From: Candidatus Micrarchaeota archaeon
GTDB taxonomy: Archaea; Micrarchaeota; Micrarchaeia; Anstonellales; Anstonellaceae
NCBI GenBank assembly: GCA_013331805.1
Contig: DUFS01000012.1
Coordinates: 1-31,989 of the forward strand
Reading direction: 5' to 3'
Length of the DNA: 31,989 nt
Made by a program: the position numbers and the translations under genes. This document shows positions 1 through 7,849 of this stretch, in pieces. The stretch's first letter is position 1, and the number at the start of each line of letters is the position of its first letter. A model generated the notes under the pieces. The model did no database searches. It worked only from the letters and a program-made list of their open reading frames with translations, and was not told the DNA's origin.

Positions 1-105
1 TAAGCTGTCCATACCGATCGCCACACGCTATTCGGATACTATATTTATAAAGAATATACCAAGTAGCGAAATTCACGAGAGAAAAAAGTGGAAAGAAAAG
101 TAGGG

Positions 106-1254
106 TTACTTGTTCTTAGCTATCTCAGCGAGCGTTTTGGCAGACTCCAGCAACGCTTTATCAAGGCCATAGCGTTCTGCAATCTCCGCCGCTCGAATAT
201 AATACCCAGTAGACATCTCCTGCTCAAACGCTTTTAGAACTGCGGCAATGACCTTATCTTTCCCAAGATCGAATTTTTCGGCAATAGAAACTGCCGAACA
301 GTTATATCCGTCAGTAAACTCTCCTCTACGCATGCATGCGGCGTATTCAGCCAAAGCTGCCTTGGTAATCAATTCTTTCCCAAGCTCAAATTCTTCAGCT
401 AACTTCGCAGCAAAATATCCAATGCCATTACCCGAACAATCATTCACCATTCTATTATAGCTATCTATTACAACTTCTAATACTAAGTTATCCCTTAGCC
501 GGTATTTCCGAGCAATGCTGATAGCGTCACTGGTATACCCTTTGCGGTAGTTCACACGAAAAATAGCCTGGGCTGCTTCAATTATCATATCTTGTCCAAG
601 GCCATAGTGCTTCGCAATTTCCAATGCAACCCCATAGTTTGCCCGAATTGGATGGGGATTGACGTATCTCGCCTCTCCACCAAGATGGTCCTCAGCATGA
701 TCGCCCCCATACATCATGTCTTCATATGCTTGTAAAGCTACAGTTCGAATATCCTCTGCTGTTAATCCCGCTTCATCCGCAATTTTCTTTGCATCATCAT
801 AGTGCAACTCCTTCAAGTAGTATTTAAAGTATTGCAGCCCAGCCGCCTTTAATTTGTCATAACCCAATTTGCCAGCTATTGCGATTCCCATTGCGATGTC
901 AAAACGACCCTTTGCCATCCAATCTTCATAGGCCTTCAGTTGTACGGCTTTCACATCATGAGCATTAAGCATATATTTATCGAGTATTCTTGCGCCGCCT
1001 CCGACTACGTTATCTGCACCCAATATCTCCCTATAGCCCCAGCGGTCTGGTTTAGTGAGATGTTCAGGTAAAAGCTTCTCCGCATAAAGAGCTACCACTG
1101 GCTTGTGGAGTAACTTTTTCGGCTCATGCCCAAGTTCCGTCGCCCTTTGCCAATCTATGTCAATACGCTCTTCCAGTGGAAGCTTCCTGAGATGCCGAAT
1201 AATCTGGGAATATTTTTCTCCTCCAATTTCAGGACCTATTGTTTTCTGTTTCAT
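106..1254 (-). CDS. Hypothetical alpha-helical repeat (solenoid-like) protein
   Basis: 382-aa ORF with GGAGGTGG RBS upstream. Recurrent ~35-40 aa motif A..IA..Y.L.(K)D.I..AA...Y...M..G. Visibly more AT-rich than the rest of the window. Confidence 0.75.
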   Translation of the reverse strand: MKQKTIGPEIGGEKYSQIIRHLRKLPLEERIDIDWQRATELGHEPKKLLHKPVVALYAEKLLPEHLTKPDRWGYREILGADNVVGGGARILDKYMLNAHDVKAVQLKAYEDWMAKGRFDIAMGIAIAGKLGYDKLKAAGLQYFKYYLKELHYDDAKKIADEAGLTAEDIRTVALQAYEDMMYGGDHAEDHLGGEARYVNPHPIRANYGVALEIAKHYGLGQDMIIEAAQAIFRVNYRKGYTSDAISIARKYRLRDNLVLEVVIDSYNRMVNDCSGNGIGYFAAKLAEEFELGKELITKAALAEYAACMRRGEFTDGYNCSAVSIAEKFDLGKDKVIAAVLKAFEQEMSTGYYIRAAEIAERYGLDKALLESAKTLAEIAKNK

Positions 1255-1354
1255 TTCAATCCACCTCCTTTCTGTTTCTTTTCGTGTCGTTTTGTGATAT
1301 AAGGATATATTTAATAAAATGTGGCATTATATCAATACCACTAAGAGTGAAAAT

Positions 1355-1630
1355 ATGGACATCTGGCAGAAACTGGGCTTTTCAGACGGCGAGGGCAGAG
1401 TTTACGAGGCAATTCTCCACTCAGAGAACGCGACTCTACAGAGCATACACGAGGCTACTGGAATAGAGCGCAGGAATGTGTATGATATCATAAACAAGCT
1501 CATCAGCAAGGGGCTGGTTGCCTACCTGACCGAAAACGGCCACAAGATATACCGCACCACCGACCCAAAGAACATTCTGAGTTTTTTTGAGGAGGAAGGG
1601 AAAGAGATAGAAAATAAAAAGGAAAGGTAA
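1355..1630 (+). pseudogene. TrmB-family transcriptional regulator, N-terminal HTH only, truncated at an IS end
   Basis: LGFSDGEGRVYEAIL...TGIERRNVYDIINKLISKGLV is a TrmB-type wHTH. The stop codon (1628-1630) falls inside the putative IS terminal sequence and no effector domain follows. Imperfect palindrome GTGGCAT-N7-ATACCAC at 1321-1341 upstream. Confidence 0.75.
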
Positions 1631-2107
1631 TTGTAAAGCTTTAGCCACCTATTTTTTCATCTTTGCAAGGTACTTTACGACCAACTGGAATATATCCTTA
1701 TCGCGATTGTTGTAGCGGAATTCCTGCTCTTTCAGGTACATGGGGAACTTATGGGGGTCCACCCCATGGAACTTCATCAGCCTCTGCTTTGCAAATGACC
1801 AGAAGCCCTCTATGCCATTGATGTAGACTTGTTGTCTGACAAAATGCTTGGAATGATTGATTTTCATATGCCCATAGCCATAGAACATCAAGGAGTCATA
1901 GCTCTTGTATTTGTCAGTGTAGACCAGGCTGCCCCGTCGCACCTTGCGCACTGTTGCATCCAGCAAAGTATCAGCAGTCACATCTTTCACTGGCTGCACC
2001 CAGACCCTGCCTTTTCTCTCGATAATTCCGAATACCGGCACCTTTCCTGCCGCCCCTCTGCCCCTTTTACCTTTTCGCCTGCCTCCAAAATAGGACTCAT
2101 CCGCTTC
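1626..2107 (-). mobile_element. IS1595-family (IS1016-like) remnant: transposase catalytic core plus one probable terminal repeat
   Basis: The frame of ORF 1649-2041 extends to 2107 as EADESYFGGRRKGKRGRGAAGKVPVFGI, followed by VYTD and INGIEGFWS motifs. The N-terminal region is missing. Probable end GGTAATTGTAAAGCTTTAGCC at 1626; no partner repeat seen. Confidence 0.85.
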
Positions 2108-2119
2108 CTGTGCTCCCGC

Positions 2120-2287
2120 CTACTTGGCAGCTTTCGCCACCAGGGCTATCCCTCCTGCCACAACGAAAAAGGTCAGCAATCCCCCGAAGAGGAGATCCAG
2201 GCCAAGATTCATGGTTTTGGATAGGAGCAAGCCGCCGACAAGCATGGCGCCCATGCCTACTGCGGTCATTCCTAGCATCTTCAGCAT
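2120..2287 (-). CDS. 55-aa two-helix membrane protein (not in the ORF track)
   Basis: MLKMLGMTAVGMGAMLVGGLLLSKTMNLGLDLLFGGLLTFFVVAGGIALVAKAAK*, with GGAGTG RBS upstream; divergent from a wHTH regulator. Confidence 0.7.
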   Translation of the reverse strand: MLKMLGMTAVGMGAMLVGGLLLSKTMNLGLDLLFGGLLTFFVVAGGIALVAKAAK

Positions 2288-2298
2288 TTATTCACTCC

Positions 2299-2358
2299 AG
2301 TCAACTGAGTTGATTTTCCAATTGACTATTCTCAAAAATAATCAACTAACTATTTAAA
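2299..2358. promoter_or_regulatory. Divergent promoter with palindromic operator sites
   Basis: Perfect palindrome TCAACT-G-AGTTGA (2301-2313), AGTTGATT...AATCAACT (2308-2315 / 2340-2347), and TATA box TATTTAAA at 2351-2358. Confidence 0.6.
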
Positions 2359-2380
2359 CCTATCGGAAGATAACATTCCG

Positions 2381-2728
2381 ATGGCTGGCGGCACGCTGGG
2401 GCTCCTTGACGAATCCGCTGCCCTTAACTCCAGGGTTTTCTCTAAAACGCGGCTCCTCATACTTTCGGTGCTGGATGAGCTGCCGGAAGGGGACAGCGCC
2501 ACGTTCCGTGAACTGAAGGCGGGCCTGAGGCTGAACGAGGGCGTGCTTTTTACCAATCTCGGCGTTCTCAAGGAAATGGGCTATGTTGAGGAAATAGATG
2601 TCAAGGTCAGGAAGAGGAACATGACGGCATACCACATCACAAATCAGGGCAGGGAAGAGCTGCGCAGCCTTGAGTCATGGTTCAGGAAATGGGCAGGGAG
2701 GCGGTTGGATGAAAGGAAACCTGGGTAA
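2381..2728 (+). CDS. Winged-helix transcriptional regulator (ArsR/MarR-like, HTH_34 type)
   Basis: RLLILSVL...TFRELKAGLRLNEGVLFTNLGVLKEMGYV...YHITNQGREEL pattern. Confidence 0.8.
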   Translation: MAGGTLGLLDESAALNSRVFSKTRLLILSVLDELPEGDSATFRELKAGLRLNEGVLFTNLGVLKEMGYVEEIDVKVRKRNMTAYHITNQGREELRSLESWFRKWAGRRLDERKPG

Positions 2729-3254
2729 GGCGATAGCGTGCTTCAAAAGGCTCGGCATTACCCCTAGGGTTGGGGATTTTGAAAGCAAGCTGGTCATGCA
2801 AAAGACAGTCTATCTTCTGCAAATCATGGGAATAAAACTCGGTTATTCTTATGGCTGGTATGTCCGCGGCAATTACTCGCCTGATTTGACAAAGGATTTG
2901 TATGAATCCCGATCTAGAGTCGAGAGCCTTTCTGGTGAGGAGAAATTGAACCAGAAGGAAAACAGTGTCCTTGATGAATTTGAGGCTGAAATGAGCAAGA
3001 AGCCTGATCCGGCAGTTCTTGAAATAGCCGCAGCCTACGCATATTTCTTCAAGGAGCGGGGCATGAGCGCAAGGGATGCGACAATAAAAACAAAGGAGGA
3101 AAAATCATTTTTCTCAGAAATGCAATTTGTGCAGGGCATAAACCGTGCAAAGGATTTGGTGTTCAAGCCGACAGCGGATGACCTTGCGCAGCTGAAGAAG
3201 GAAATGGCACCCTGGGAAGCAGCCTCGCGCGAGACAATGAAAAAATTCTCATAA
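2709..3254 (+). CDS. YwgA/SocA(Panacea)-like putative antitoxin
   Basis: MQKTVYLLQ...YSYGWYVRGNYSPDL resembles the QKL.Y...W..GPYS motif. Lies directly upstream of a PemK toxin. Start taken as ATG 2709. Confidence 0.6.
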   Translation: MKGNLGKAIACFKRLGITPRVGDFESKLVMQKTVYLLQIMGIKLGYSYGWYVRGNYSPDLTKDLYESRSRVESLSGEEKLNQKENSVLDEFEAEMSKKPDPAVLEIAAAYAYFFKERGMSARDATIKTKEEKSFFSEMQFVQGINRAKDLVFKPTADDLAQLKKEMAPWEAASRETMKKFS

Positions 3255-3266
3255 AATGGTGGAAAT

Positions 3267-3605
3267 GTGAAAGAGGTTGCAAAGGGAGATGTCTGGCTCA
3301 CCAACCTGCCCGGAGGGGAAGGTCACGAGCAAAAGGGAAGGAAATACGCAGCGGTTTTGCGTGACATAAAACAGATGAACATGGCTGTTGTGGTGCCGCT
3401 TACCTCCAAACCAAAGACCGAGAATTATCCATATACGCATCTGTTCATGCCGTCAAAGGAAAATGGGCTCTGGGATGAAACATTTGCAATGGTTTTTCAG
3501 ATTGTATCGCTTGACAAAAGCGGCCTCCTTCAAAAAGCTGGAAAATTGGATGCAAAAGACATTGCTGCGATTGATTCCATCCTCAAAGATATGCTGAAGC
3601 TGTAG
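3267..3605 (+). CDS. PemK/MazF-family endoribonuclease toxin
   Basis: KGDVWLTNL...GHEQKGRKYAAV, VVVPLTS and FQIVSLDK motifs. Confidence 0.88.
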   Translation: MKEVAKGDVWLTNLPGGEGHEQKGRKYAAVLRDIKQMNMAVVVPLTSKPKTENYPYTHLFMPSKENGLWDETFAMVFQIVSLDKSGLLQKAGKLDAKDIAAIDSILKDMLKL

Positions 3606-3606
3606 T

Positions 3607-3773
3607 GTGCCGGTTGTTTCTCGCTCTTCCAGTTTCCTTCTCGTTCTTCCAACCCCTCTCTTCTCCGTCACCCCTCGCTCTTCTTGTCGTTCGTTTCCTC
3701 TCCTCTCATTTTCCTGCCCGCTTTCCGGCTCACTGACTCGCGCGAAGGAACGAGAACGCGGATGAAGGGCGAA
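3607..3773. repeat. Intergenic repeat copy R1
   Basis: Shares GTGCCGGT.GTTTCTC.CTC and TTTCCTGCCCGCTTTCCGGC...ACTCGCGCGAAGGAACGAGAACGCGG...AAGGGCGAA with 4393-4524. Confidence 0.9.
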
Positions 3774-3778
3774 TGAGC

Positions 3779-4048
3779 CTACTTCTCCTTCGGAAGGTGC
3801 TTGTAAACCCTTTTCCTATGGTCAATGAGAGTCACGTCTATTCTTTTCAGCGTGTGGTCTATGTCCGCAATCAGCCTGTAGTCGCCAACCCGAAGCTTGA
3901 AATCCTTCCGGCCCTCAAGCTGCTCGAAGAAGTGCAGAGGATTCTCTTTTGCGTCTGCAGCCTTGTTGAAAATCCGCTTGCGCAGCTCCTTTGGCAAGCT
4001 CTCCAGGAATTCAAGCGGTTTCCTGTCGTAAATGATTTCATAAGTCAC
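3779..4048 (-). CDS. RelE/ParE-family toxin
   Basis: 89 aa; FLESLPKELRKRI...KLRVGDYRLI...IDHRKRVY. Confidence 0.9.
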   Translation of the reverse strand: MTYEIIYDRKPLEFLESLPKELRKRIFNKAADAKENPLHFFEQLEGRKDFKLRVGDYRLIADIDHTLKRIDVTLIDHRKRVYKHLPKEK

Positions 4049-4290
4049 AGGCCCAGCCTCTTCCGTGCCTCCTCTTCAGTAACAAAGTCTCCAGCCTTTA
4101 TCCTTTTCCTTGCGGCTTCTATCTTCTCAACAGCCTCGCGAGACAGCTCAGGCTCATCTTTGGCAGCCTTGGCAATTCCAACGAGCTTCATCACTACTTC
4201 GTCGTAGCTCTCATTCCTGTATTCCCGGTATTGGTCCAGGTGGGATTTTGTTTTCCTATGCAGCCTTATAGTGCATACGTCCATATACAT
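4045..4290 (-). CDS. Archaeal antitoxin (RHH-like N-terminus)
   Basis: TIRLHRKTKSHLDQY...ESYDEVVMKL...FVTEEEARKRLGL; 4-nt overlap with relE. Start at 4290 or 4284. Confidence 0.82.
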   Translation of the reverse strand: MYMDVCTIRLHRKTKSHLDQYREYRNESYDEVVMKLVGIAKAAKDEPELSREAVEKIEAARKRIKAGDFVTEEEARKRLGL

Positions 4291-4293
4291 CAC

Positions 4294-4324
4294 GTATACT
4301 TTAGTATACTTAGGTATATTTAAA
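4294..4324 (-). promoter_or_regulatory. TA promoter with tandem GTATAC operator palindromes
   Basis: GTATAC (4294-4299), AGTATACT (4303-4310) and GGTATA lie between a minus-strand TATA box (4317-4324) and the antitoxin start. Confidence 0.6.
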
Positions 4325-4366
4325 CCCGTGTGTTCCGGCTTTGGCATGGAAAACACTGCCTTACTG

Positions 4367-4560
4367 GCGCTTAAAAAGATGAGTCCAGTGGGGTGCCGGT
4401 AGTTTCTCACTCTCCGGTTTCCTCTCGTTCCCCTGTTCGTCTGTCTCCCAACTCCCCCACCTTTCCTGCCCGCTTTCCGGCCCTTTACTCGCGCGAAGGA
4501 ACGAGAACGCGGCACAAGGGCGAAAGACCGGCATCCCACTTTGTTCTCATTTTTAAGGGC
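4367..4560. repeat. Intergenic repeat copy R2, bounded by imperfect inverted repeats (MITE-like or structured RNA)
   Basis: 14-bp IR AGTGGGGTGCCGGT (4387-4400) / ACCGGCATCCCACT (4527-4540) with one G.T pair, plus outer IR GCGCTTAAAAA (4367-4377) / TTTTTAAGGGC (4550-4560). Confidence 0.85.
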
Positions 4561-4598
4561 CGGATAGCATCACAAGAACGCGCCTGGCAAGGATAGGC

Positions 4599-4621
4599 TT
4601 ATATATACAAAAGCTGTATAT
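4599..4621 (+). promoter_or_regulatory. TA promoter with palindromic operator
   Basis: TTATATAT box overlapping the palindrome ATATACA-N5-TGTATAT (4603-4621); GAGGTGA RBS follows. Confidence 0.6.
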
Positions 4622-4640
4622 CTGTCAGAGGTGAGCGTTC

Positions 4641-4886
4641 ATGAAATCCACCATGCTGCAATACGAGGGTTCGGTTGAGGATGCGGTAGAGCGGCTCCTC
4701 CAGCTGGGCGTCTTCAAGTCAAAGGCTGACATATTTCGGGTGGGCGCAATGGAGCTTGCGGCAAAGTACGGCCTCGTCAAGTCCAGGGAGGAAGTGATTG
4801 AGGAAATGATGTACGCTGATGCCGAGCCTGCCTTGCGCAAGCTGAAAGCAGGGAGGGCAAGGCTCCACCGGCTTGAGAAAATCTGA
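4641..4886 (+). CDS. Putative RHH/CopG-type antitoxin
   Basis: 81 aa; VERLLQLGVFKSKADIFRVGAMEL resembles the RHH helix pattern; upstream of a RelE-like gene. Confidence 0.7.
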   Translation: MKSTMLQYEGSVEDAVERLLQLGVFKSKADIFRVGAMELAAKYGLVKSREEVIEEMMYADAEPALRKLKAGRARLHRLEKI

Positions 4887-4894
4887 GTGAAAGG

Positions 4895-5176
4895 ATGGCG
4901 CAAAAAGGGGAGTTCAGCGTCCTTCTTACTGATGAGGCACTGTCTGCGCTGGACAGGCTGGACAAATCTGTAAGGGAGAGGGTGAAAAAGAGGCTGGAAG
5001 CCCTAAGGACCCTGCGCCCAGCAAGGACGCTTAGGAAGCATGGCGAGGTCTGGATCCTTGAGATTGGCGATTTCCGCGCACTTTACCTGATTGACGAAAA
5101 GGCTGCAACAAGAACTATCTTCTTTATCGGAAACCACAAAGAATATCAAAAGAGATACCTGAAGATGTTCGGTTGA
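4895..5176 (+). CDS. RelE/ParE-family toxin
   Basis: 93 aa; ALSALDRLDKSVRERVKKRL...LEIGDFRALYLIDE...FIGNHKEY. Confidence 0.82.
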   Translation: MAQKGEFSVLLTDEALSALDRLDKSVRERVKKRLEALRTLRPARTLRKHGEVWILEIGDFRALYLIDEKAATRTIFFIGNHKEYQKRYLKMFG

Positions 5177-5187
5177 AGGGAAACCAT

Positions 5188-5271
5188 TCGCTCTTCAGTT
5201 TCGCCGTTTTCTTCCCCCCTGCTGCCCGCTTTCTGCCCGCGCTAGGGCGAACAGCGCGGCAGGAGAACGAG
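5188..5271. repeat. Degenerate repeat copy R3
   Basis: Retains TCGCTCTTC.AGTTTC, CTGCCCGCTTTC, AGGGCGAA and GAACGAG blocks; hairpin CTGCCCGCGCT/AGCGCGGCAG. Confidence 0.6.
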
Positions 5272-5359
5272 CTACCTGAACGAATTGAACCATCTTTCGT
5301 ATTCCTTGTGGGTGGCAAAGCAGCGAAGGACTTTGATAAGTTCTCCCTCCTCAAGATAA

Positions 5360-6161
5360 ACGAGCCTAGCCTGCTTGGGGGGAATCTTGTTATGTCTCCT
5401 ATTTCCGCCATTATCATCAGCGCGGAGTAATGGCTTATTCCTGGGATTGTCATGATGAGCCTGGCATGGTAGTTGTCCTCTGCCATTGCCTCAACCTGTT
5501 TCTGCACGCCGTCTATCCTCTCATCGAGCGCGGGCAGGAGGAAAAGGTATTGGTCAATCTCAAACCTGCTTGCTGCAGGAAGCTCAAGCGTCTGCAGGTA
5601 TTCCATCCCCGACTTGCCAAAGATGTCCGACATCTCATAGTTTATTCCGTGCCTTGCAAGTATGGCATGGATTTTGTTTTTCACTTCAGTGCGGATGTTC
5701 ACAAGGGATGACCGCAGCCTTGCCACCTGCCTCTCATCCCTCACGCGCTGCGGCGCAACGTAGCTTTCAGGTATGAGGTCTGCACGCAGGAGGTGCGCAA
5801 GCATTTCCGCGCCTATCTTGTCCGTCTTTATCCTTGCGGAAGCAATGGCTTTTACCTGGAGTGGGTTGGCAGGCGTCATGTCAAACCCGTTCTGCTCAAG
5901 GTAGTCGTAGAGGTACTGCCAGCTGTAGCTTGCCTCCACGACTATCTTTGAGCCAGGCTCAAGCTCAGAGATGAACTCATCCACAGCTTTCATTTCATTT
6001 GGCACTTTTTCTGACATCAGCACAACTCCTTTCTCATCCATCACACAGGCGTGTGAAAACGCCCGGTGCACGTCCAATCCCACATATTGCATACCAACCC
6101 CCTCCAATTTTTTTGTTTGGCGCTCCTCTCTTATAGGTGGAGGGGGGTTTTCATGCAATCA
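5360..6161 (-). mobile_element. IS110-family element, truncated and probably inactive
   Basis: From ATG 6092: YVGLDVH, VVEAS, KTDKIGA (expected KTD..DA), TIPGIS...AEIGDITRF, after which homology is lost near 5360-5380. Hairpin AACCCCCTCCA/TGGAGGGGGGTT (6096-6149) covers the RBS. Ends are approximate. Confidence 0.88.
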
Positions 6162-6301
6162 TGTAAAAAGCTGCTGCAACCGCGCTTAAAAACACGCGCC
6201 AAGCAAGGGTGCCGGTGGCTTCCAGCACTGCCTTACGCAGGCGCCCAACAATGCAGAATAAAAACTGTGCTGTTCACAAGGGGTATGCAAATGGTGATCT
6301 A

Positions 6302-6493
6302 ATGAAAGGAAAAGTGAAGATGTTCAACGCTGACCGTGGTTTTGGATTCATCACGGGCGACGACGGCAAGGACGTGTATGTGCACACTTCTTCGATTGAA
6401 GGCGGCGCTGCGCTCCCAGTCGGCACGGAAGTAGAGTACGAGGTCGAATCCGGCGAGCGGGGCCTGCGCGCAAAGAACGTGAAAAAGGTATAG
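6302..6493 (+). CDS. csp: Cold-shock domain protein (CspA family)
   Basis: 63 aa; KGKVKMFN...RGFGFI (RNP1), DVYVH (RNP2); GGTGA RBS. Confidence 0.93.
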   Translation: MKGKVKMFNADRGFGFITGDDGKDVYVHTSSIEGGAALPVGTEVEYEVESGERGLRAKNVKKV

Positions 6494-6613
6494 GCGCGCA
6501 AAAACAGCAGAATGCGCTTCTGAAATCCGCTTAGCTCTGCTGCTGAAAAAATCTGCGGGGATGTGGCCCTAATTAAGGTGTTATTTATATAATTTTATGT
6601 ATATATCTGACCT

Positions 6614-7849
6614 ATGGATAATTTCAAGGCACAGAGCATAGCCCATATCCCAAAGCACATGCGGGAAAAACTCAATAACTTCCCTGCCTACAGGCTGCTT
6701 GGCTTTGACACAAGGAAAATGGGCGCAATCACCTTCGAGAACTTCCTATCATTTGCATGGAACACTGACTTGGTTTTTTCCGAGCGCGAGAAGGGGAATC
6801 TGGGGGATAAGTTTGTTCCCGAGGCCCGCAAATGCTTCCTTTTCCTTGATGCAAACGGCGATGGGCTTCTTTCCCCCCTAGACGCGGACAGGATGGGGAA
6901 AATAACCGACCTGTCGCGCGCCGAGGCATCGTATGCGCCCAAGCTAAAAAAGGGCAAGCCATATTCCCATGAATTGTCGGACACCAGCAAAATCATCGCA
7001 AACGCAGCCAAGCTCTTCATGGATAACAAGCTCAAGTCAATCAATGAAAGCAGGGAAATCGTCGAGCATGGGGGCGCGTGCATCTACAAATACAGCGTTC
7101 CTTTGCTCTATCTTGCAAAAGAGCAGGAAAGCGCGACCATACTGCACCTGTCAGACATCCACTTTGACGGCAGGAACGGGAAAAAGGCGAAAAAGACTGA
7201 ACAGAAGCTTGATTTCCTTTCCACACTCAGGGGAAAAATCGACCCTCCGGACATTGTTGTAGTCACGGGAGATATTATCACAAAATCAGCAGAGGACTTT
7301 TCAGAAAGGGCGAAAAAAGCGCTTGCCGGCCTTTTTCCAAAAGCGCTCCGTTTTTTCGTTTTCGGGAACCACGACATCGATTTCGGCGGCGAAAAAAAGA
7401 TATCGGACGCTCTCTGCGGTTCGGGCTATTCAAACCTCACAAACAGGCACATGGAAGTTGAAGTGAGGGGAAAGCCCTTTGCCATGACCGGGCTGGACGA
7501 TTTACTGTGCGGAAAGCCAGCCCTCCCGGGCTTTGCTCCGGCAACGCAACTCATTCCAAATGTGCTTGCAACACACAACCTTGATGCAGTTGATGGCAGC
7601 TCCCCCCGCTTTTTCGACCTGGTCCTCACGGGCCACACCCACATGGGGGAGAAGAACTTCCTGCTTTTCGACGGCTATGCGTTCCTGAAGCTTTTCAAGA
7701 TATACGGGAATATCAACAGCCAGAAGGACGAGTGGGGCGTGGCATCGCAGAGGACAACATTCCACATTACTGCTGGCCTTGGGACGCACAATACCCGCTT
7801 TAACACAACGCCCGAAGGAGTAACGCTCATCACGCTTGTGCGCGGATGA
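6614..7849 (+). CDS. Calcineurin-like metallophosphoesterase with N-terminal EF-hand pair
   Basis: SDIH, TGD, GNHD, H and GHTH motifs; EF-hand loop DANGDGLLSPLD. Confidence 0.85.
   Translation: MDNFKAQSIAHIPKHMREKLNNFPAYRLLGFDTRKMGAITFENFLSFAWNTDLVFSEREKGNLGDKFVPEARKCFLFLDANGDGLLSPLDADRMGKITDLSRAEASYAPKLKKGKPYSHELSDTSKIIANAAKLFMDNKLKSINESREIVEHGGACIYKYSVPLLYLAKEQESATILHLSDIHFDGRNGKKAKKTEQKLDFLSTLRGKIDPPDIVVVTGDIITKSAEDFSERAKKALAGLFPKALRFFVFGNHDIDFGGEKKISDALCGSGYSNLTNRHMEVEVRGKPFAMTGLDDLLCGKPALPGFAPATQLIPNVLATHNLDAVDGSSPRFFDLVLTGHTHMGEKNFLLFDGYAFLKLFKIYGNINSQKDEWGVASQRTTFHITAGLGTHNTRFNTTPEGVTLITLVRG

Follow-up and report, generated by a model that had tools for sequence, protein, structure and literature searches.

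Repeats between toxin-antitoxin cassettes of a Micrarchaeota contig as candidate seams of an integrase-less array

In a 31,989-nt contig of a Candidatus Micrarchaeota archaeon, small toxin-antitoxin (TA) pairs were found to alternate with copies of a long repeat, here named R. The contig (DUFS01000012.1 of assembly GCA_013331805.1, positions 1 to 31,989 of the forward strand) was analyzed over its full length and is referred to as the window. It is contig C32 of a 1.19-Mb genome in 83 contigs, which is 91.5% complete, has 53% G+C, and is called the own genome below, C32 included. Its small size, its leaderless TATA-type promoters, and the intron-bearing tRNAs of its relatives are in keeping with a DPANN-type archaeon. 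Based on its architecture, constant orientation, tight packing, and a mapped exchange, R is the seam of a cassette array. On balance, the R copies are best read as att-like seams of an integrase-less array of TA cassettes, which probably enter and leave by recombination from core to core. While the movement of TA pairs has mostly been deduced from patchy distributions, here a pair was caught both present and absent, and the seam was mapped to 23 bases. The window sequence was carried by 19 public runs, which were groundwater and soil metagenomes and included no RNA data set.

Repeat copies and the cassettes they separate

Three copies of R were located in the window, and two further copies, R2a and R2b, were found on L049, a 35.5-kb metagenome contig of the same organism (coordinates marked L049rc refer to its reverse complement). 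The copies in the window are as follows.

3607-3776, + strand: R1, in which a long C/T-rich spacer separates the 5' block at 3607-3646 from the 3' block, with the core at 3736-3761
4393-4527, + strand: R2, with the core at 4487-4512 and the exchange interval at 4490-4512
5182-5276, + strand: R3, a diverged type II copy that separates the stop of relE2 from that of a minus-strand open reading frame (ORF), the latter at 5272-5274

Across copies, R was 95-170 nt long. Its 5' block is followed by a C/T-rich spacer, the length of which differs between copies by about 40 nt or more, and then by a CTGCCCGCT block and the core, CGCGCGAAGGAACGAGAACGCGG. The initial annotation of this DNA had described common 5' and 3' blocks of R1 and R2 around a pyrimidine-rich spacer, and these were recovered by BLAST as alignments of 67 nt at 88% identity (E 3e-17) and 40 nt at 87.5%. 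A block of 26 nt was identical between R1 (3736-3761) and R2 (4487-4512). Within R1, R2a, and R2b, conservation is highest in the core, while the flanks have drifted to 88% or less. Two subtypes were distinguished: that of R1 and R2a, in which GTGCCGGT opens the repeat and the spacer is long, and that of R2b and R3, which is short and starts with TTCGCTCTT directly after a toxin stop. A hidden Markov model (HMM) trained on R1 and the two copies of L049, with R3 left out, recovered R3 (5182-5276) at E=2e-4, and no score below E=6 was obtained in the rest of the own genome apart from the R locus. Judged by its sequence, R3 is weaker than R1 and R2 but a real copy of the repeat.

All R copies, four or five in number, were co-oriented on the forward strand whichever way the genes point, and they started 0-11 nt after toxin stops. 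R1 begins 1 nt past the pemK stop, as had been annotated, while its end lies 2 nt before the relE stop codon rather than 5 nt. The onset of R3 falls 5-11 nt past the second relE stop depending on where the edge is called, a range that includes the previously given 11 nt. R1 and R3 each lie between convergent genes, facing the 3' ends of minus-strand genes. Gene families were assigned by Pfam, and the genes of the array are as follows.

2670-3254, + strand: ORF of 194 aa upstream of pemK, with no family match and an unverified label of antitoxin
3267-3605, + strand: PemK/MazF-type toxin, pemK (Pfam PF02452, E 4e-18), its stop 1 nt before R1
3777-4326, - strand: TA unit A, comprising toxin, antitoxin, and a TATA-type promoter
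3779-4048, - strand: ParE/RelE toxin of unit A, relE1 (Pfam)
4045-4287, - strand: DUF7557 antitoxin of unit A (Pfam)
4592-5176, + strand: TA unit B, comprising a promoter, an 81-aa ORF, and a ParE/RelE toxin
4641-4886, + strand: 81-aa ORF of unit B, without a family and an antitoxin by position only
4895-5176, + strand: ParE/RelE toxin of unit B, relE2 (Pfam)

Each cassette consists of a toxin and a small partner ORF only, with no genes for integration or transfer. The toxins are dissimilar and include PemK, two different ParE/RelE proteins, and one YafQ/RelE-like protein (of cassette X, below), and the partners are DUF7557, ribbon-helix-helix-like, or unassigned. Since three to four cassettes carry dissimilar toxins and antitoxins, the repeats are not by-products of the duplication of one TA pair. 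The annotated gene order of antitoxin-pemK, relE-antitoxin, and antitoxin-relE was confirmed by Pfam for the toxins and for the DUF7557 antitoxin. In contrast, the family searches assigned no antitoxin family to the 194-aa partner of pemK or to the 81-aa partner. In unit A, the 36 nt at 4273-4308 (antitoxin start and promoter) also occurred in other contigs of three runs, which diverge on both sides and are probably paralogous TA loci.

Haplotypes with and without one cassette

L049 was identical to the window over 1-4478 and differed from it at a single position over 4490-5490, and it contained an additional 631 bp between R2a and R2b. In this segment, cassette X, a promoter is accompanied by an ORF of 74 aa and a YafQ/RelE-like toxin of 86 aa. 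The R2 of the window consists of the 5' part of R2a and the 3' part of R2b, where the exchange falls within 4490-4512, a 23-nt stretch of the core that is identical between R2a and R2b. The breakpoints thus lie in the most conserved 23 nt of the repeat. Two otherwise identical haplotypes differ by exactly one TA cassette.

Cassette X carries R-like ends that are unlike the arms of R2, namely a 5' part that is short and of type II, and a 3' tail that differs as well. The possession of such ends means that the cassette came from, or leaves as, an R-bounded unit, and their belonging to the other subtype relates the two forms by one reciprocal exchange between R cores. The partners of that exchange were either two chromosomal cores, or one chromosomal core and one on a circle. 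A simple target-site duplication was rejected as the source of R2a and R2b, as it would not give differing R-like ends. Besides the cassette, the only two differences between the window and L049 are at 4479 and 4538, 11 and 26 nt from the exchange interval. The contigs of two runs stop at 4478, hence position 4479 seems to be polymorphic in the field.

Four runs (X2, X4, X6, and X7) were compared with the window through their Logan contigs. In X7, a contig covering 4483-4898 with 0 differences has the window-type join without the additional cassette, while a second contig ends at 3772 and its 30 letters shown all match the junction of L049 from R2a into the cassette. In X4, two contigs share 30 nt at 3743-3772, an overlap that would be expected with the second copy of L049 present. 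The contigs of X2 and X6 run unbroken through R1, and X2 was ambiguous for the additional cassette, since in its contig from 4483 a further 44 letters disagree with the window. Both haplotypes, with and without cassette X, occur in nature.

The gain and loss of cassettes could proceed as follows. Two flanking R copies would recombine inside the core, and the cassette would leave as a circle with one R. Such a circle could then recombine with a resident R, by which the cassette would enter. Repeated use of one site would give a tandem array with all R copies co-oriented regardless of gene direction, where each cassette would be one self-promoted TA pair. We infer that the exchange is probably the work of a site-specific enzyme and not a product of short-homology recombination or replication slippage, and that it would pass through a circular intermediate. 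The two Xer-like tyrosine recombinases of the own genome, on contigs C60 and C64, are candidate enzymes that may act in trans. The polymorphic seam offers a concrete substrate on which a recombinase in trans can be tested against plain short-homology recombination.

Distribution of R and of repeat-bracketed units

As far as searched, R is confined to this locus. BLAST at word size 7 found no other copy in the own genome, and a sequence-only covariance model of the 3' block recovered the three sites of the window there at 58-68 bits and no others. Across 150 genomes of the order, scores from this model did not exceed 18 bits and were regarded as noise. The wider occurrence that the initial annotation had proposed to look for by genome-wide BLASTN and covariance searches was accordingly not seen in the own genome or in these relatives. 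When R2 and its flanks were compared with 60 relatives, the only three matches (20-59 nt, E about 1e-3) were confined to the promoter-like part described below. Public collections were scanned for exact matches of a 19-mer (GTDB species genomes, one genome per species), a 23-mer (viral contigs), and a 26-mer (metagenome records). The 19-mer matched at 33 loci, none of which extends past 23-27 nt, and these were read as chance. The 23-mer had no exact match in the viral contigs, and the 26-mer was found in two contigs only among 241 million metagenome records, both of this organism. Synteny was followed through the neighbouring phosphoesterase gene, where two of 22 genomes of the genus matched at 35-41% identity, too divergent for comparison.

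The TA units themselves have homologues among the relatives. For unit A, homology to the best relatives spans 3777-4326 only, with 75.6% identity to L124 7939-8488; for cassette X it spans L049rc 5855-6387, and for unit B 4592-5170, where the identity to units in genomes G031 and G025 is 74-76%. In all three, the homology runs from promoter to stop and ends at the repeat edges. Direct repeats bracketed the queried TA pair in four of 22 loci with relE1 homologues (23-57 nt) and in four of 59 loci with homologues of relE2 or of the toxin of cassette X (18, 43, 50, and 83 nt, the 83-nt pair being perfect). Two additional repeat pairs bracketed another ParE unit and an ankyrin gene. The repeats were unrelated in five of the 12 loci that had any repeat.

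The repeat of two relE1-homologue loci was present in 13 of 42 genomes of the family, with up to 11 clustered and co-oriented copies per genome. It is composed of the 3' part of an intron-containing tRNA-Leu(CAA) and a conserved element arm, and it adjoins genes for tyrosine integrases of 380-400 aa. Between its copies lie integrase-bearing elements as well as TA-only and single-gene units. These tRNA-Leu-linked elements (in G003, G025, G026, G014, G017, and others) resemble the R array in their clustered, co-oriented repeats at a spacing of 0.6-5 kb, in TA-only and single-gene units homologous to cassettes A and B, and in a cold-shock gene near two of the arrays. In contrast, R is neither recognizable as a part of tRNA-Leu(CAA) nor located beside such integrases. 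In G025 and G031, the relE2 homologues are followed within about 25-35 nt by an att repeat of the tRNA-Leu type, which is the position of R3 in the window.

The tRNA-Leu(CAA) genes on L121, L122, L123, L125, and L127 (from G003, G025, and G007) contain introns, including one in the T-loop region, and serve as integration sites for tandem elements; none of them was reported by ARAGORN. The element of G003 additionally encodes an RT-16 RNA at L122 5057-5227 on the minus strand (Rfam RF03019, 81.8 bits), beside a reverse-transcriptase ORF at 3836-4969 on the same strand.

In the own genome, the tRNA-Leu gene is intact on C44, with its site unoccupied. A tRNA origin of R was rejected, as no tRNA is present in the window and this gene is unoccupied. 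The tyrosine integrase of C60 (393 aa, with a zinc ribbon) has 41% identity to the integrase family of the relatives, and C60:1-1271 begins within the 3' end of another tRNA, followed by the integrase gene at 90-1271. Copies of 13-16 nt of this tRNA end were observed on C60 at 8184, 8275, 12597, and 14781, which suggests a second tandem array. Furthermore, small units between direct repeats of 30-45 nt were found at five places of the own genome.

C66:12639-13415: repeat-bracketed unit
C81:5962-7069: repeat-bracketed unit
C28:26772-28297: repeat-bracketed unit
C42:1503-3478: repeat-bracketed unit
C77:11306-12040: repeat-bracketed unit

They contain a PIN-toxin pair with perfect repeats of 42 nt, a gene of the Fic/DOC type, two genes for AAA_14/DUF4143 ATPases, and an ORF of 215 aa that matched no family. 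No terminal inverted repeats were found at the ends of six repeat-bracketed units. As the same layout recurs in the own genome and in relatives, the array may bear on the turnover of accessory and defence genes in reduced DPANN genomes.

Competing explanations and neighbouring elements

Several observations weigh against core-to-core recombination at att-like seams. A linked recombinase, which the initial annotation had proposed to look for, was absent from the window, and none was found in the 1.3 kb beyond its left end, which leads into ftsZ. The two tyrosine recombinases of the genome, both Xer-like with a C-terminal zinc ribbon, lie on other contigs and nothing ties them to R. By eye, the core did not show inverted binding sites clearly paired about a short overlap region. 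Unlike the att repeats of the relatives, R belongs to no tRNA and to no recognizable gene end, and none of the 81 homologue loci in relatives carries R. In the exact-match scans of the collections, no wider pool of R-bearing cassettes was visible. An identity of 23-26 nt could by itself allow deletion through slippage or short-homology recombination without an enzyme, and if L049 is ancestral, the polymorphism says nothing about insertion. Additionally, the many different bracket repeats fit a sequence-independent making of repeats at least as well as they fit many recombinases.

The copies could instead be passive direct repeats left by a past insertion, through duplication of its target or of intergenic sequence, with the strain difference being an ordinary deletion between 23-26-nt identities that arose by slippage during replication or by short-homology recombination and involved no dedicated site or enzyme. 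This explanation is possible but doubtful. It would account for an exchange interval that is simply the longest identical stretch of R2a and R2b, for the lack of a nearby recombinase, and for the absence of R outside this locus; bracket repeats elsewhere have many unrelated sequences of 18-83 nt (two of them perfect), around units without terminal inverted repeats. However, R2a and R2b are not duplicates of one target and belong to different subtypes that share the core and short blocks only. In three unrelated cassettes, the toxin stop is followed after 0-11 nt by the start of an R, all copies are co-oriented, and conservation of the core next to drifted flanks suggests a constraint on the core. 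A broader proposal, in which R is the site of a cassette-capture system other than an integron, each TA cassette has an R of its own, some recombinase swaps cassettes at the 23-nt core, and the many other recombinase-less units of one or two genes between repeats, in this genome and across the order, stem from the same general machinery, is considered unlikely. If true, such a system would be a main route by which accessory and defence genes are gained and lost in these tiny genomes.

The array shares with described mobile systems the presence of co-oriented sites that separate compact cassettes and of direct repeats with an identical core flanking each unit (26 nt between R1 and R2, 23 nt between R2a and R2b). 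The closest systems described in the parts of the literature at hand are integrase-less, att-flanked elements that accrete in tandem (excerpts of PMC5704250 and PMC6563490) and integron cassettes (excerpts of PMC9668308). In the first of these excerpts, cis-mobilizable elements (CIMEs) are defined and the tandem accretion of ICESt1/ICESt3-related islands of Streptococcus thermophilus at one att site is described (PMC5704250), while the second reports archaeal arrays formed by the reuse of an integration site (PMC6563490). The R array resembles CIMEs in its direct repeats with an identical core, in units that carry no integrase and stand several in tandem at one site, in gain and loss by recombination between repeats, and in TA genes as typical cargo. 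In contrast, the units here are just 0.6-0.75 kb long and contain a TA pair only, and R is a composite of 95-170 nt with two conserved blocks around a variable C/T-rich spacer and with two subtypes. It does not coincide with a tRNA or protein gene end, and no cognate integrase-bearing element was seen beside the array. As for R being the att site of an integrase-bearing element, R was nowhere next to an integrase and no tRNA was found in the window.

The pdif modules of Acinetobacter plasmids are likewise small, often consist of TA pairs, are bounded by XerC/XerD sites, and are shuffled between replicons with no recombinase of their own. Their sites are 28-bp Xer sites of alternating orientation. 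R differs from these in being long and directly repeated, with no Xer-type 11-6-11 layout by eye. No description of small TA-only cassettes with such repeats in archaea was found by full-text searches of the literature, supplements aside, which does not prove their absence.

A canonical integron array without integrase, that is, a cluster of attC sites lacking integron-integrases (CALIN), in which R would be an unusual attC, is the least probable explanation of all. Excerpts of Ghaly et al. (2022, PMC9668308) report integrons and CALINs in archaea, DPANN among them, with TA systems as the most common annotated function of archaeal integron cassettes (10.5%). Similar to integrons, every cassette here seems to come with a site variant of its own, the cassettes are tightly packed between co-oriented sites that abut stop codons, exchange occurs at a conserved point, and TA cassettes with their own promoters point in either direction. 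Yet the words RYYYAAC and GTTRRRY, which the initial annotation had rightly reported to be missing from the repeat ends, were absent from both strands of the window at 3550-5350 and from every R copy. The single match to an attC word at L049rc 5600-6560 (about 5916-5922) falls in the antitoxin gene of the cassette and in no R. R has no consistent single-strand hairpin, and R1 exceeds the usual limit of attC length. This upper limit is usually given as 141 nt. No IntI was found in the window or in the 91.5%-complete genome, where the right end of the array is missing from the assembly, and the two tyrosine recombinases scored 66.6 and 35.7 bits against the integron-integrase model TIGR02249, for which the cut-off is 265. 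No attI was present, and the R family is limited, as far as searched, to one locus of one species. Of the suggestion that R copies are recombination sites of an integron-like array, the cassette seams were favoured by the haplotypes and the 23-nt breakpoints, while the integron itself was not, in view of the missing attC words, IntI, and hairpin.

It is also quite improbable that R is transcribed and functions as a cis-acting or small RNA (a 3' untranslated region, a terminator-insulator separating TA operons that converge or diverge, or an antisense RNA to the minus-strand toxin downstream), with recombination being incidental. R begins right after three toxin stops, minus-strand toxin genes run with their 3' ends toward R1 and R3, and R2 is preceded by a TATA-like word spaced to start transcription at about its first bases and followed by a T-run. 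On the other strand, however, the TATA word lies 22 nt before an ATG and fits the leaderless promoter of a neighbouring gene (a real antitoxin gene in the case of C74), and homologous TA units in relatives work without R. The spacer varies in length by about 40 nt or more, and no match to R was found in Rfam at E up to 1. Minimum-energy folds were compared with dinucleotide shuffles on both strands, where R1, R2, and R3 showed no signal with RNA and DNA parameters (z from -2.5 to +2.1), and DNA-parameter folds of R1, R2, R2a, R2b, and R3 had z of -2.0 to +2.1. The ends paired with each other only in the R2 of the window. The description of the repeat as structured was not confirmed, with fold energies no better than those of shuffles, and the helices named earlier are not in equivalent alignment columns of R1 and R2. 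Four or five copies are too few for covariation, and the ncRNA option of the initial annotation was neither borne out nor refuted.

A mobile repeat of the kind known as miniature inverted-repeat transposable elements (MITE) or repetitive extragenic palindromes (REP) that landed several times, perhaps as a target or passenger of an IS110 insertion sequence (IS), is very unlikely. Some IS110 members, such as IS621, reportedly target REP repeats. The likeness to these systems lies in the intergenic position of the repeats, in the inverted arms of about 34 nt that frame R2, and in an IS110-family gene 100 nt from R3. Against this, no dispersed copy was found beyond the locus in the 91.5%-complete genome or in relatives, R1, R2b, and R3 lack one or both arms such that only R2 has the pair, and no target duplications were seen. 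The arms also correspond to a promoter-like module that occurs without R, and the IS is joined inside its own gene, is single-copy, and is intact in other runs. Both the REP/MITE option and the link of IS110 to the repeats, as raised in the initial annotation, found no support.

The left arm of R2 is formed by the promoter-like module at 4345-4400. Its features, and those of the module found without R, are as follows.

4345-4400, + strand: promoter-like module, with CATG, 19 nt, GCGCTTAAAAA at 4367-4377, 15 nt, and GTGCCGGT at 4393-4400
4527-4561, + strand: right inverted arm of R2, with ACCGGCATCCC, 11 nt, and TTTTTAAGGGC, mirroring 4367-4400
6160-6216, + strand: second promoter-like module, with CATG at 6160-6163, GCGCTTAAAAA at 6182-6192, and GTGCCGGT at 6209-6216, and without R

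The second module is located between the start of the IS110 gene and the cold-shock gene. The module recurs as a TATA word (GCGCTTAAAAA or similar), 13-16 variable nt, and GGRTGCCGGTRG, and it was also observed in the own genome at C74:2534-2574 (L131 1035-1075) and C1:2993, as well as in the relatives G003 (C31; L122 about 7680-7720) and G017 (C4; L128 about 3980-3993). On the opposite strand it reads as TATA, 22 nt, and ATG, which fits a leaderless promoter, and in the C74 copy this ATG opens a real AbrB-type antitoxin gene. A conserved word, ACCGGCAYCC, is found upstream of the TATA box of the module, and the otherwise identical sequences of G003 and G017 diverge exactly after it.

To the right of R3, the array is joined to the IS110-family gene as follows.

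5275-5378, - strand: 3' fragment of an ORF, 35 codons, with the stop at 5272-5274 (4 nt inside the R3 edge), continuing in other runs
5369-5378: 10-nt microhomology junction where the array is joined to the IS110 body, in the window and L049
5373-6095, - strand: IS110-family DEDD transposase, with 31 of 87 C-terminal-domain positions kept, the only copy in the genome
6302-6493: cold-shock gene, to the right of the IS110 gene

IS110 has no visible relation to the R repeats: no IS end abuts R3, and the join lies inside the transposase frame. The annotated IS110 remnant was retained as the transposase fragment at 5373-6095, while the stretch at 5272-5378 belongs to another minus-strand ORF, for which Pfam gave only a weak match to DUF1936 (E 0.04, over the 36-aa fragment at 5275-5382). 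The 10-nt word at 5369-5378 lies inside both reading frames, that of the array ORF and that of the transposase. The contigs shown for all four runs depart from the window at this word in both directions, and none of them bridges the junction. From the left part, they run on into the upstream portion of the minus-strand ORF, and in front of the right part they contain sequence that extends the transposase with the usual motif of the family (by hand translation), hence the IS is intact in those samples. The junction may be a microhomology deletion or a shared misassembly. Neither a second IS110 copy nor the missing C-terminal part was found in the own genome, and the best relative in the order has 36% identity, from which the IS ends were not definable.

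Two additional observations concern other parts of the window. The metagenome contig L047 matches the window over 2590-4009, up to position 4009 inside relE, and continues into DNA without a match in the own genome; as a possible chimera or rearranged strain, it was kept out of the argument. The segment at 1649-2041 is a fragment of an IS1595-type transposase gene, to which many variant contigs of the public runs map, indicating that this family is multi-copy in those communities.

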